The notes: generated by a model not told the origin, from the letters alone. A stretch of 64,000 nucleotides of DNA from an uncultured Clostridia bacterium (GCA_944393315.1 CALXZT010000001.1:10252-74251), one strand, 5' to 3'; positions 44,406-64,000 are shown, numbered from the stretch's first letter. A program made the numbers and translations.

Positions 44406-44450
44406 AGGAATGAACTCTGCAATTTACAGAACTCATTCCTTTGTTTCTAA
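44406..44450 (+). terminator. rho-independent terminator after spoIVA (AGGAATGA...TCATTCCT + TTTGTTTCT)
   Basis: Read directly. Confidence 0.5.
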
Positions 44451-45007
44451 TATTTTATTTTATCTATTTGTTTTTTCTTTATAGCTCTTTGTTTTTTCTT
44501 TTTATAAATGTAATTATTATAGCTAAACTTTAAAAGTAAAGATAAAAAGATAAAAACACTTGTTATTTTTGATTGCAATATTTCTAGCACTATTCCCAGG
44601 AAATGTATATTTACTACTTTCTTTCCAATAATCTGATTGTTTGTCACTTTTTCAATATCAGGGTAATAGTTTTTATTAGATTTTGTAGTATATTCTTTTT
44701 CTTTGTTTATAATTTTGTTTATCCTTGTTTTGTTATTAATCTTATAAGCAATAATATCTCCTTCTTTTAATTCTTTTTCATCTACTTTTTTTACTATAAC
44801 TAAATCATTTTCATTTATATCTTCTTCCATCAAATCATTTTTCATGCAGAAAAAACTTATTCCAAATACTTCAAAATAATCATTTTTATTTATAGTTGTA
44901 GTTAATAAAAATATTATATTAAATAAAATTCCAAAACAAATAATTACATATAAACAGTTTAACAATATTTTTCTAAAATTAATTTCTTTCTTTTTTGTTA
45001 TCTTCAA
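44447..45007 (-). CDS. SipW-like signal peptidase paralogue lacking the catalytic Ser/His (probable pseudo-peptidase)
   Basis: Same N-TM/C-TM architecture as the SipW upstream, but SMEP is replaced by FCMKND and THRI by TRIN. Overlaps the upstream gene by 29 nt. Confidence 0.5.
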   Translation of the reverse strand: MKITKKKEINFRKILLNCLYVIICFGILFNIIFLLTTTINKNDYFEVFGISFFCMKNDLMEEDINENDLVIVKKVDEKELKEGDIIAYKINNKTRINKIINKEKEYTTKSNKNYYPDIEKVTNNQIIGKKVVNIHFLGIVLEILQSKITSVFIFLSLLLKFSYNNYIYKKKKQRAIKKKQIDKIKY

Positions 45008-45566
45008 TTTTTTTCTTTTCTCTCCTATATTCCTTCTTTTCTTGCCTTTGCATTCCTATAAACATAAATATCAATATTATTAATAATATTATTAAAAATA
45101 TTATCTTGTTTTGTAGTATTTGTACTAGAATTCCTAAATATGGTATTGTCAAAATGTGTTTTCCCTCTATGCTGTCATAAGTAATTTTAAATGTATCTTC
45201 TATATTATTATTATCACCTTTTGTTGTAAATTTTATTTTACTATCATCATTGTCTATTTTTGTAATTCTATGAGTGATAACCTCTCCATCTTGTATAAAT
45301 GTTATTATATCATGTACTTTTATTTCATCGTCTTTTACTTTTTTAGTTATAATCACATCATTAATATTAATTGTTGGTTCCATGCTATTTGTTTTAATTA
45401 TATATGCTTTATAACCGAATATATTGTTAAAACCAATGTTGTGTTCAGATGAAATAACAATTAAAATAATGTTATAAATCAATATAATAGCAATTATTTC
45501 AATAACTTTTTTAGCCATTTTTGCTTTTTCTTTTCTTCTATTTATTGACTCTAAATCGTATTTCAT
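44979..45566 (-). CDS. sipW: signal peptidase I, archaeal/SipW type
   Basis: NSMEPTI catalytic Ser, ITHRI catalytic His, C-terminal TM. Confidence 0.8.
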   Translation of the reverse strand: MKYDLESINRRKEKAKMAKKVIEIIAIILIYNIILIVISSEHNIGFNNIFGYKAYIIKTNSMEPTININDVIITKKVKDDEIKVHDIITFIQDGEVITHRITKIDNDDSKIKFTTKGDNNNIEDTFKITYDSIEGKHILTIPYLGILVQILQNKIIFLIILLIILIFMFIGMQRQEKKEYRREKKKIEDNKKERN

Positions 45567-45579
45567 TTTTACCTCTTAA

Positions 45580-62069: not shown

Positions 62070-62077
62070 CTTTCACC

Positions 62078-63112
62078 TCATATTTCTATAATATTTTGTA
62101 AATCTCCCTTGTTTCTTATTATTTCTTCATATTTTTTTATATTTTTATTAATTATAATAAACTCAAACATTTTTAGACTCTCTATTTCTTTAAAAGTCGC
62201 TTCAAATGAATTATCTAGAACTACTGTTATTTTGTAACCTTCTCTCATTAGTTCATATACTTTTTCCTTATTTTCTAAAAATTGTTCGTATTTAATTTTT
62301 AAACTTATTTTTTCTTGAATTGCAACATTATCTATTATGTTTAATATGCTCTTAATTTTTTTGGGCTTATTTAATAGCGTACTTGCAAATTCTACAATGT
62401 ATTTTCTTTTATAATTTTGTTTTAAAATATCCTTTAAAATTTGTAATACAGTTAAATAATATTCTACTACTAGCTTATCTTCATTTACGATGCCCATTTG
62501 AAACGCTTTATTTATAGCAAATTCACTATATTCTAAAGGAAATTTTAAATTATACTTTAAATTTATTCTATAAACATTTGATTTATTTGGGTATCTTGTT
62601 AATTTTATGTAGAATTCATCTGAGGAAAATTGCTTTATAAGTTCACTCTTTTCTTTTAAGTATTCTTCCATCTTTTGATATAATTTTTCTTCAAAATTGC
62701 TTGAATTGTCTTTGACCCTTTTTCTCTTTATTTTTGCAATTTGCTCTATTTTTTTTCTTAAATCTTTATAATAAGCAACATTGTCAAAATATAAAACATA
62801 ATAAAAAAATATGCGCATTACCTCTATTAACTCTCTATCATTGATATTATTTATAATAATATCTTCTTCAGTTTGTTTTAAATAATCTAATAATTTTTTT
62901 CTAGTATTTTCATAAATATCATTTTCATAATAGTTAAAGTAACGAATATTAATATATCTTTCAGTATAAATATCACAATATCTTTGATTGAATTCATTTC
63001 CAAAAACTAATTTCATATATTCGTTTATTTGTTTTTTAGTTAATTCTATATATTCATTCATAATATTTATTGTCATATTTTCTAACTCCTTACTTTGTTG
63101 TGACTGAAACAA
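62078..63112 (-). CDS. hypothetical cytoplasmic protein (344 aa)
   Basis: No TM or motif recognised. Confidence 0.45.
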   Translation of the reverse strand: MFQSQQSKELENMTINIMNEYIELTKKQINEYMKLVFGNEFNQRYCDIYTERYINIRYFNYYENDIYENTRKKLLDYLKQTEEDIIINNINDRELIEVMRIFFYYVLYFDNVAYYKDLRKKIEQIAKIKRKRVKDNSSNFEEKLYQKMEEYLKEKSELIKQFSSDEFYIKLTRYPNKSNVYRINLKYNLKFPLEYSEFAINKAFQMGIVNEDKLVVEYYLTVLQILKDILKQNYKRKYIVEFASTLLNKPKKIKSILNIIDNVAIQEKISLKIKYEQFLENKEKVYELMREGYKITVVLDNSFEATFKEIESLKMFEFIIINKNIKKYEEIIRNKGDLQNIIEI

Positions 63113-64000
63113 CAGAATAATTATTTAGATTAGGATATGTATAATCTTTTGAAGTATCTACTTTATAAAATCTTAAATCCACACTAGAAATAGCATCTAT
63201 TGATAATGTAATACTATTAATATAGCTTTTTCCATTAATCGTTTTTGTTGTAACATTAGTTGCCTTTTGATAGCTTTCACTTGTATTGTCTATTAAAATT
63301 TCACTTGGGTCAAATGTTATGGTAACTATACTAGAATAGCATTTGGCTTTGTCTGCTTCTGATAATGACAAATATGTATCAAAATCAATTTTTTGCCCAG
63401 TTGTAAAGTTGCTAAAGTTTTGTGCTACCACATAGTAAGACAATGTATTAGTAATTCTTAACTCTGCATAAGGGTTATTGGGTGAATCTGTTATATGATA
63501 TGTTAATTTTTCTTGACCCACTATTAATGTGAATCTTCCTTTTATTGTTTTAGCATAATTAGAATTGGTTGTTGCTTCTATTTCTACAACTACTTTATCT
63601 CCCGTATCTAATTGTGTATTTGGTGTTATTGTTAAATTAAAAAAGTCTGTATTTGTCTCTTTTGCGATTATACCTTTATCTTTGCTTAATTGACAAATAA
63701 CATTATCTGAACATGTATATGTTATGTTATACCCAATATCATATGTAGCAACTTCCAAGTTGTTTTTTCTACTATTCATATTAACTGTTATTGTATAGTC
63801 ATCAACTCCTGACCAATTTTCAATTTGAAATATAGTTTTTTCTTCTGATAGTTTATCACTATAAAAATAGAACTCTTTACTTCTCATAAAAAAGTCATTT
63901 ATGCTGTTTGTAACATATCTTCCAAAAACAGTAACAAAGGAAATTGCAAACAATAATATTGTGATAATAATTATTGTTTGCTTTTTTTTGTAGATTCGCT
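63090..64000 (-). CDS. secreted beta-rich protein with N-terminal TM/signal (partial; N-terminus beyond window end)
   Basis: The open frame continues upstream of the TTG at 63953 through KKKQTIIIITILLFAISFVTVFGRYV to the window edge without a stop. Confidence 0.45.
   Translation of the reverse strand, partial: RIYKKKQTIIIITILLFAISFVTVFGRYVTNSINDFFMRSKEFYFYSDKLSEEKTIFQIENWSGVDDYTITVNMNSRKNNLEVATYDIGYNITYTCSDNVICQLSKDKGIIAKETNTDFFNLTITPNTQLDTGDKVVVEIEATTNSNYAKTIKGRFTLIVGQEKLTYHITDSPNNPYAELRITNTLSYYVVAQNFSNFTTGQKIDFDTYLSLSEADKAKCYSSIVTITFDPSEILIDNTSESYQKATNVTTKTINGKSYINSITLSIDAISSVDLRFYKVDTSKDYTYPNLNNYSVVSVTTK

Follow-up and report, generated by a model that had tools for sequence, protein, structure and literature searches.

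An McrB-type GTPase locus of the CoCoPALM class in uncultured Clostridia and its candidate role in building a SipW-processed surface fibre

We analysed a stretch of 64,000 nucleotides (nt) from an uncultured Clostridia bacterium (GCA_944393315.1 CALXZT010000001.1:10252-74251), hereafter the window, which at positions 44447-64000 carries a gene cluster joining an McrB-type GTPase and an McrC-like partner to SipW-type signal peptidases and to secreted proteins with a single membrane anchor. Judged by its sequence features, the locus is a member of CoCoPALM, a class of systems that has been named yet remains uncharacterised. We consider it probable that the locus builds a SipW-processed extracellular fibre or pilus that bears an adhesin of 2,651 amino acids (aa), with the GTPase/McrC pair acting as a cytoplasmic motor or gate.

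The class was named by Bell et al. (eLife 2024; PMC11090510), who describe, in the part of the paper devoted to these systems, a large clade of NxD McrB GTPases fused to an FtsB-like transmembrane (TM) segment and a coiled coil. They give CoCoPALM three sentences, point to linked signal-peptidase-family “pilus assembly” genes, and defer the analysis. A first-pass annotation of the window, made from the sequence alone, had called the locus undescribed, which this naming overturns. The idea of a GTPase for pilus assembly is likewise already flagged in the literature, where we found no later CoCoPALM paper. We assign the locus to the class because its GTPase has the NxD signature and a TM anchor and is accompanied by DUF2357 and signal peptidase genes. 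The likeness to the published description (PMC11090510, the same passages) extends to the residue after NxD (D or E), to the DUF2357/McrC neighbour, to the replacement of the DNA-binding domain by an N-terminal TM segment and a short coiled-coil-like segment, and to the hosts, which are Bacillota. Unlike in that description, FtsB homology and an McrC coiled coil are only weakly detectable in this member. The definition in those passages comes without a gene inventory; the one recovered here is richer than the published account, with five SipW paralogs (two of them dead), eight anchored substrates, a giant putative adhesin and, in a sister branch, an EAL gene.

To read beyond the window end, we used the metagenomic contig L001, whose proteins are 99-100% identical to those of the window. 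On this contig the cluster runs about 2.4 kb past position 64000, where, upstream of the open reading frame (ORF) cut by the window end, there are genes for a secreted protein of 192 aa, an active SipW of 176 aa, another secreted protein of 206 aa and, lastly, a degenerate SipW-like protein of 181 aa. Because L001 extends one end of the cluster and spoIVA bounds the other, the complete locus is estimated at about 22 kb. Carriers were counted by scanning one genome per species, and synteny counts were taken in the 80 best related loci.

The GTPase, its McrC-like partner and a possible role in defence

The GTPase carries the Walker A motif GISGTGKTS, the Walker B motif LDEMN and the motif G-T-x-N-x-D-[DEQ]-S-T, in which N348 and D350 were invariant among 15 relatives down to 33% identity, with D, E or Q at position 351. 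Its family profile matched the E. coli McrB structure 6hz4 (E 1.1e-5), the NxD motif being aligned to McrB MNTAD, and AAA_5 was matched in 13 of the 15 relatives. A strong TM segment at residues 56-74 precedes the McrB-like P-loop domain, in keeping with the membrane-anchored McrB-like ATPase of the first-pass annotation, and this anchor takes the N-terminal place where McrB has its DNA-binding domain. Since basic residues follow the TM segment, the positive-inside rule would put the GTPase domain in the cytoplasm. By the same topology, residues 1-55 should lie outside the cell or within the membrane; their pattern, including aromatic and glycine positions, is conserved across relatives. A single heptad-like segment was detected in the protein, at residues 72-103.

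The first-pass annotation had counted three unknown cytoplasmic proteins. One of them proved to be the DUF2357/McrC-N homolog, and another, placed at 63090-63953, a TM-anchored secreted paralog. The 332-aa protein has no family match; its orthologs occur in 28 loci. Beside its DUF2357 domain, the McrC-like protein showed no PD-(D/E)xK or other domain in Pfam, PADLOC and PDB profile searches, and no nuclease or DNA-binding domain was found in the GTPase/McrC pair by Pfam, NCBIfam, PADLOC or PDB profile searches. Profiles of the 342-aa, 197-aa, 332-aa and McrC-like families, built as hidden Markov models, gave no informative match against PDB sequences.

The pair resembles McrBC type IV restriction systems and their CoCoNuT relatives in its homologous GTPase domain (E 1e-5) and its McrC N-terminal domain, and presumably also in the hexamer-plus-plug architecture of McrBC. 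It differs from them in having no detectable nuclease or DNA-binding domain, in its membrane tether and in its linkage to exported structural proteins. This ancestry raises the question of an anti-phage or other conflict system, in which the GTPase and McrC would sense an invader and the peptidases and secreted proteins would act as envelope effectors. The GTPase domain does match the PADLOC defence candidate PDC-M26A (5.6e-33), and the sister CoCoNuT systems are predicted as defence in the portion of PMC11090510 that treats them. However, PADLOC was matched by the GTPase alone and by none of four further proteins, cytoplasmic or unassigned, that the scan covered, the peptidases and most secreted proteins lying outside it; an RNA-binding domain is missing along with the nuclease and DNA-binding domains, and the TM anchor stands in place of the specificity domain. 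The constant linkage to about 20 kb of exported structural proteins and the very good conservation of the GTPase also argue against a defence role, as do three observations set out below: the EAL gene of distant loci, the absence of full-length relatives from plasmids and viral contigs, and the housekeeping surroundings. Taken together, we regard a defence system as very improbable.

Signal peptidases and their candidate substrates

All three SipW peptidases recorded by the first-pass annotation exceed the TIGR02228 cut-off of 51.85 bits (Table 1), although the 186-aa copy lacks the catalytic serine and histidine. Of the two further copies on L001, the 176-aa protein scores above the cut-off (76.1 bits) and the 181-aa protein below it (19.9 bits). 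An alignment of the 195-aa copy with human SEC11A (7p2p; E 5e-11) sets NSMEP/THR/TKGDNN opposite SMEP/VHR/TKGDNN, and no SEC11 match was obtained for the 186-aa copy. In an alignment of the paralogs, the catalytic Ser/His/Asp motifs (SMxP, THR, GD/GV-N) are kept in the 195-, 192- and 176-aa copies; in the 186-aa copy the serine of GSM is substituted and the THR motif deleted, and in the 181-aa copy the His motif is deleted. These losses extend to orthologs: SMxP was present in none of six orthologs of the 186-aa copy and in none of 40 orthologs of the 181-aa copy. Because the catalytic motifs are kept in three copies and lost in two, together with the orthologs of those two, the five paralogs are probably three enzymes and two conserved pseudo-enzymes. 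Orthologs of the 192-aa SipW were found in 56 of the 80 loci.

Eight proteins of the locus have one N-terminal hydrophobic or TM segment (206, 192, 314, 197, 198, 244, 342 and 2,651 aa). After the TM segment we found STYA-WF in the 342-aa protein, NTYA-WF in the 197-aa protein, IYA-KY in the 198-aa protein, IYA-VF in the 206-aa protein and IKA-FTD in the giant, with small residues falling at -3 and -1 of the predicted cut, a requirement of signal peptidase I. The pattern [TSI][YFW]A[WKVAYF][FY] occurred within residues 1-70 of 136 among 2,363 ORFs from the 80 related loci, compared with one of 1,267 ORFs for residues 71-140 and about nine after shuffling; the frequency of the SipW-type motif in N-termini of these loci is far above chance. 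The residues directly following the predicted cut were invariant in both subunit families examined, and in the 197-aa family two lysines of the cytoplasmic n-region were invariant as well.

Four of these secreted proteins had been described as paralogs with SipW-cognate N-termini. The TM segment followed by YAWF (342 and 197 aa), YAKY (198 aa) or GYFT (244 aa) is indeed there; as paralogs, the secreted proteins resemble one another weakly, with BLASTP E values from 2.5e-7 to 0.37. AlphaFold models of subunits are confident (predicted local distance difference test scores of 83.7 and 80.0), and each shows an N-terminal helix and then a beta-sandwich. A Foldseek search of the 342-aa model against PDB returned nothing usable (best E 0.03, TM-score about 0.1). 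We also considered a C-terminal CalY/TasA-like motif seen by eye, and dropped it, as it lies in a predicted helix of the AlphaFold model and has no profile support.

Two family models proposed by the first-pass annotation as checks gave different answers. On TIGR04088, the SipW-cognate signal model, the 342-aa protein itself scored 14.8 bits, below the cut-off of 19, whereas 31 of 35 orthologs matched at E <= 0.1 (best 6.2e-5), and two homologs bear Joint Genome Institute names in line with this model; the remaining paralogs and the N-terminus of the giant gave no TIGR04088 match. Peptidase_M73 (PF12389) matched no window protein at E <= 0.1 among those scanned against Pfam, and one of 31 orthologs of the 197-aa protein matched it at E 0.022. 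It is plausible, then, that these exported proteins behave like SipW-dependent fibre subunits; membership in the TasA family isn't supported, and we withhold it because Peptidase_M73 was not matched.

Among known systems, the tapA-sipW-tasA operon of Bacillus subtilis and the calY/camelysin operons likewise place a dedicated endoplasmic reticulum/archaeal-type SipW next to its secreted substrates, and share the TIGR04088-type cleavage region “[GT]-aromatic-A / aromatic-F” and beta-sandwich substrates; TasA polymerises through donor-strand exchange (PMC9674648). Unlike the present locus, those operons comprise two or three genes and lack an NTPase, an McrC-like protein, pseudo-peptidases and a giant protein. 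The sipW-bsaA system of Clostridium perfringens also yields a clostridial SipW-dependent matrix polymer, for which an NTPase-driven machine of the pilus type is proposed to be necessary to cross the wall (PMC7395162, PMC11580942). There, the polymer is isopeptide-bonded and the machine is a separate type IV pilus system, whereas here an McrB-type NTPase is encoded in the locus itself; the “McrB” of the BsaA preprint is merely an E. coli strain genotype. Subunits processed by signal peptidase I are also found in archaeal donor-strand filaments, namely Sulfolobus threads (7pnb), Pyrobaculum bundling pili and Pyrodictium cannulae (9h8b), for which TasA-like relationships have been discussed (PMC9245690, PMC12518558).

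The largest gene of the cluster encodes the giant 2,651-aa protein, whose repeat-rich nature, as first annotated, was borne out by Gly/Asn-rich GGxN repeats at about residues 1100-1800; these repeats may be beta-helix-like. It had no Pfam or NCBIfam match. LPxTG was absent from all 18 locus proteins, and no sortase was matched among the locus proteins scanned against Pfam and NCBIfam. Orthologs of the giant occur in 27 of the 80 loci, sometimes upstream of the cluster. Indeed, in L005, L006, L013, L019, L025-L030 and others, the giant gene and the last two SipW-like genes lie upstream of the cluster rather than downstream, so the giant-protein module has been relocated as a block yet has stayed linked. 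Next to it is the gene of the 525-aa protein, with heptad-like stretches at residues 26-59 and 104-134 (65 residues, compared with 15 in shuffles) and orthologs in 17 loci. The adjoining 36-aa gene is separate in L001 and L002 and merged with the 525-aa gene into a 568-aa gene in L003 (14588-16294), which may represent a split/fused gene polymorphism.

Table 1. Features of the locus within the window, ordered by position.
Feature	Position	Strand	Remarks
SipW-like pseudo-peptidase, 186 aa	44447..45007	-	TIGR02228 55.5 bits; signal peptidase I fold signature; without catalytic Ser and His
SipW-type (endoplasmic reticulum/archaeal-type) signal peptidase I, 195 aa	44979..45566	-	TIGR02228 94.5 bits; catalytic residues present
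Giant secreted protein, 2,651 aa	45580..53535	-	N-terminal TM, KAFTD, acidic linker, GGxN repeats, beta-rich C-terminus
525-aa cytoplasmic protein	53563..55140	-	Heptad-like (coiled-coil-like) segments; no TM, no family match
36-aa ORF with ribosome-binding site	55160..55270	-	19 nt upstream of 525-aa gene
Intrinsic terminator hairpin, 13-bp stem and U-run	55350..55383	-	After 342-aa gene; free energy -17.4 kcal/mol, z = -6.0
342-aa secreted protein, predicted beta-sandwich, SipW-type N-terminus STYA/WFTAN	55405..56433	-	Candidate major fibre subunit
Sigma-70-like promoter TTGACA-17-TATACT	56504..56532	-	Upstream of 342-aa gene; 11/12 matches; consensus match alone
244-aa membrane-anchored protein: basic cytoplasmic tail of about 35 residues, TM, GYFT	56612..57346	-	Candidate base/anchor subunit
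198-aa secreted paralog, IYA/KY	57500..58096	+	Opposite-strand orientation conserved across loci
197-aa secreted protein, predicted beta-sandwich, NTYA/WFIYAT	58166..58759	-	Translationally coupled to upstream SipW gene
SipW-type signal peptidase I, 192 aa	58756..59334	-	TIGR02228 81.6 bits; GSM and THR motifs present
McrC-like partner, 382 aa	59336..60484	-	DUF2357 N-terminal domain, PF09823 E 3.2e-12
Membrane-anchored McrB-family GTPase, 507 aa	60546..62069	-	TM 56-74, short heptad-like stretch, P-loop domain with NxD signature
332-aa cytoplasmic protein	62078..63076	-	Adjoins GTPase gene, coupled; no family or PDB match
314-aa TM-anchored secreted paralog, FGRYVT	63090..64000	-	5' end cut; frame open to window end; full on L001

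Conservation, organisation and surroundings of the locus

Relatives of the GTPase, which belongs to a very large family, were found in at least 596 species genomes. In a first search, 8,000 matches were scored, the best 120 of which were all at least 77% identical; a second search, against representatives, reached as low as about 34% identity and still recovered relatives that were full-length and shared the TM architecture. The titles of the carriers name uncultured Clostridia, Clostridium sp. CAG:567, Ruminococcus, Acutalibacteraceae, Oscillospiraceae and Christensenellaceae, and further carriers are metagenome-assembled genomes labelled Bacilli, Mollicutes, Tenericutes or Erysipelotrichaceae. 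The closest carrier is an uncultured Clostridia with a chromosome of about 1.55 Mb.

The neighbourhood is conserved across the 80 species-level loci and several Firmicutes lineages, with a SipW-like gene in 76 of them and a DUF2357 gene in 75. The DUF2357 gene starts no more than 200 nt past the GTPase stop in 72 of 76 loci, and the order SipW, GTPase, McrC-like, SipW, 197-aa, 198-aa (reversed) is recurrent. Both kinds of module are known separately elsewhere, so one could read the locus as a mosaic, in which an ordinary TasA-like matrix operon happens to lie beside an unrelated McrBC-like module. This recurrence across loci refutes the mosaic, which the first-pass annotation had itself named as an outcome that would overturn its reading and to which we attach a near-negligible probability: the arrangement is repeated in 72-76 of the 80 loci and in several lineages, and within the window the GTPase and McrC genes sit between genes for secreted proteins and peptidases with gaps of only -23 to +61 nt.

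Distant loci of Ruminococcus, Acutalibacteraceae and Christensenellaceae hold a smaller set whose order is kept (244-like, 342-like, SipW, GTPase and an McrC-like protein of 724-750 aa), and two of them, L046 and L048, contain a complete giant-protein gene. The GTPase is the most conserved component, with median identities of 73% and 67% in close and mid-distance loci, respectively. The 244-aa protein comes second to it and is the most conserved exported component (61% and 52%), its ortholog being retained in the distant minimal loci; the exported subunits evolve faster, at 35-48%. In 17 distant loci of the Ruminococcus/Acutalibacteraceae type, the cluster is headed by an EAL gene, encoding a cyclic di-GMP phosphodiesterase. 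These genes stand alone, as in L046 (5469-6224) and L072 (7777-8544), with Pfam E values of 1e-46 and 5e-32, and in 15 other loci. Their presence in the sister branch points to surface behaviour controlled by cyclic di-GMP rather than to defence. No EAL domain was detected in the locus of the window itself; the suspicion that the 332-aa protein carries a degenerate one in its C-terminal half was rejected, based on Pfam searches of 26 orthologs and an hhalign comparison with a distant-locus EAL (probability 0.1).

A search of 72,556 plasmids and of IMG/VR gave no full-length GTPase relative, and the locus is not mobile. The rest of the window consists of housekeeping genes (dnaK, dnaJ, rimO, asnB), and the window is uniform in base composition. 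The fetched flanks of related loci are mostly filled by the system itself, and their conservation says little on vertical inheritance. Public sources hold no annotation on the exact locus proteins.

The ORFs were all recovered at the coordinates that the first-pass annotation had given. All genes of the cluster lie on the minus strand save the 198-aa gene, contrary to the co-orientation that had been annotated, and the exception is conserved in related loci. From 44447 the order is the 186- and 195-aa SipW-like genes, which overlap, followed by those for 2,651, 525, 342, 244, 198 (plus strand) and 197 aa, the 192-aa SipW-like gene, those for 382, 507 and 332 aa, and the ORF cut at the window end. 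The 197-aa gene overlaps its SipW neighbour by 4 nt, the latter starts 1 nt past the 382-aa gene, and 8 nt separate the end of the 332-aa gene from the 507-aa gene. The 198-aa gene is on the opposite strand in about 40 loci, convergent with the 197-aa gene, with terminator-like hairpins between the two in most. An invertible segment around it was considered and set aside, as the inverted repeats found were short and imperfect.

The hairpin that follows the 342-aa gene was equalled in stability by none of 200 shuffles. Across orthologs, terminator-like hairpins lie downstream of the 198-aa gene in 62%, of the 197-aa gene in 35% and of the 342-aa gene in 30%, compared with 0% for the GTPase, 332-aa and giant genes. 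A generic promoter scan was uninformative in this AT-rich window (121 sites versus 141 expected). The hairpins and the promoter-like site of the 342-aa gene fit a long machinery operon, a separate and strongly expressed 342-aa unit, and a further operon that begins with the 525-aa gene and takes in the giant and the last two SipW-like genes, as predicted from the sequence.

At the other end of the locus, spoIVA is convergent at a distance of 128 nt (TIGR02836, 757 bits), as had been annotated, and this adjacency underlay the suggestion of a spore appendage or exosporium fibre expressed during sporulation. In the related loci, spoIVA lies within the fetched stretch in just one of 80, which undercuts the suggestion. 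Against it as well, the promoter-like site of the 342-aa gene has a sigma-70 pattern (a consensus match alone), Pfam and NCBIfam scans gave no similarity to known endospore appendage proteins, and many carriers are metagenome-assembled genomes labelled Mollicutes, Tenericutes or Bacilli (going by labels alone). We therefore consider a spore structure very improbable.

Farther out on L001, beyond the cluster, lie a divergent 359-aa gene and then unrelated genes for a choloylglycine hydrolase-family protein and an ABC-F protein. The 359-aa protein (L001 4465-5544, minus strand) is cytoplasmic, has no family match and sits beside the first SipW-like gene; its gene is kept in six loci, among them the five closest, at 37-71% identity and mostly in divergent orientation, and it could be a candidate regulator of the locus. 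An Rfam scan for a riboswitch or RNA regulator of the locus returned nothing but an unrelated S-adenosylmethionine (SAM) riboswitch (RF00162, window 36360-36461, minus strand, 75 bits, E 1e-15), upstream of a 369-aa ORF at 35140-36249. Elsewhere in the window (19090-22353, minus strand), a GT2 glycosyltransferase with weak EpsU/PgaC-like matches stands beside a sensor histidine kinase; the pair may be exopolysaccharide-related and separate from the fibre locus.

A proposed assembly mechanism

We propose that Sec inserts the precursors, which stay anchored through their N-terminal helix until the active SipW paralogs cleave them, and that cleavage would free a conserved hydrophobic N-terminal strand. 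Through this strand the beta-sandwich subunits would polymerise, probably by the donor-strand complementation known from TasA and archaeal threads; the one pointer to this, an indirect one, is that the residues following the predicted cut are invariant. Having a promoter and a terminator to itself, the 342-aa protein would be the major subunit, with the smaller paralogs as minor subunits and the 244-aa protein, with its basic cytoplasmic tail, as the membrane-proximal base. The beta-helix-like giant would be the adhesin displayed on the fibre, and the two pseudo-peptidases could serve as non-catalytic substrate receptors or chaperones. At the cytoplasmic face, a GTPase ring with an McrC-like plug, as in McrBC, would act together with the 332-aa and 525-aa proteins, GTP hydrolysis driving or gating the extraction and assembly of subunits much like the PilB/PilC motor of type IV pili.

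By analogy, this arrangement recalls type IV and Tad pili, where subunits with conserved N-termini are likewise TM-anchored, several minor subunits occur, and a dedicated peptidase works alongside a cytoplasmic hexameric NTPase. Unlike in those pili, signal peptidase I, rather than a prepilin peptidase, would here cut after the TM helix, and the NTPase is McrB-type, not PilB/TadA; the Pfam and NCBIfam matches of the locus include no Tad or Pil homolog and no prepilin peptidase, PilB/TadA-type ATPase or platform protein. The TANB77 “conserved pilin” cluster (PMC11680825), which we also considered, is Tad-type and an unrelated locus.

The same components could instead form a short pseudopilus or piston in the style of type II secretion, in which the small TM-anchored proteins, powered by the GTPase, push the giant adhesin and perhaps other cargo through the thick peptidoglycan instead of making a long fibre. 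The giant is linked in 27 of 80 loci without a wall-sorting signal, the “minor” paralogs are many and of low similarity, and there is a precedent: in the sections of PMC11580942 that deal with the BsaA polymer of C. perfringens, type IV pilus-associated proteins are proposed for its passage through the wall. Yet the 342-aa gene resembles that of a highly expressed, fast-evolving major structural subunit, and the giant gene was detected in under half of the loci flanked by 6 kb or more on both sides (20 of 48), a shortfall explained in part by flank length. We judge the pseudopilus unlikely.

Several points also weigh against the favoured fibre. The searches for Pfam M73 and against PDB sequences were negative, and the subunit-family profiles match no PDB TasA chain. 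Matches of GTPase relatives to division families are few and weak (FtsL_2 in two of 15, E 0.017; DivIC in one of 15, E 0.012), and a crude heptad test detects no segment in the McrC-like protein. The role of the GTPase in assembly is argued from gene linkage and analogy, the fibre function of the CoCoPALM class is predicted from genes alone, and co-expression of the locus genes is suggested by spacing and terminators. The first-pass view of an elaborate SipW-linked assembly machine stands in that the locus is one conserved multi-gene system, in agreement with the published guess; for the functional part, we infer it. More tentatively, and with less than even confidence, we suggest that CoCoPALM as a whole is a distinct fibre or pilus machine of single-membrane bacteria, made of an exapted, tethered McrB ring, a nuclease-less McrC plug, dead SipW receptors and a displayed adhesin, in which the ring would power or gate subunit extraction, SipW cleavage and donor-strand polymerisation.

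The locus offers experimental handles in its three active and two dead SipW paralogs, the predicted YA/WF site, the Walker A lysine and the 342-aa gene, which probably encodes the major subunit and is served by a promoter and a terminator of its own. If the proposal is true, a GTPase family known only as the motor of restriction enzymes has been re-used for cell-surface assembly, adding a mechanism to the few ways in which bacteria are known to build pili. The carriers, abundant and for the most part uncultured, are Firmicutes of the gut and rumen, and because more than 20 kb of their DNA goes into the locus, the structure is probably central to their attachment to hosts, to particles or to each other.

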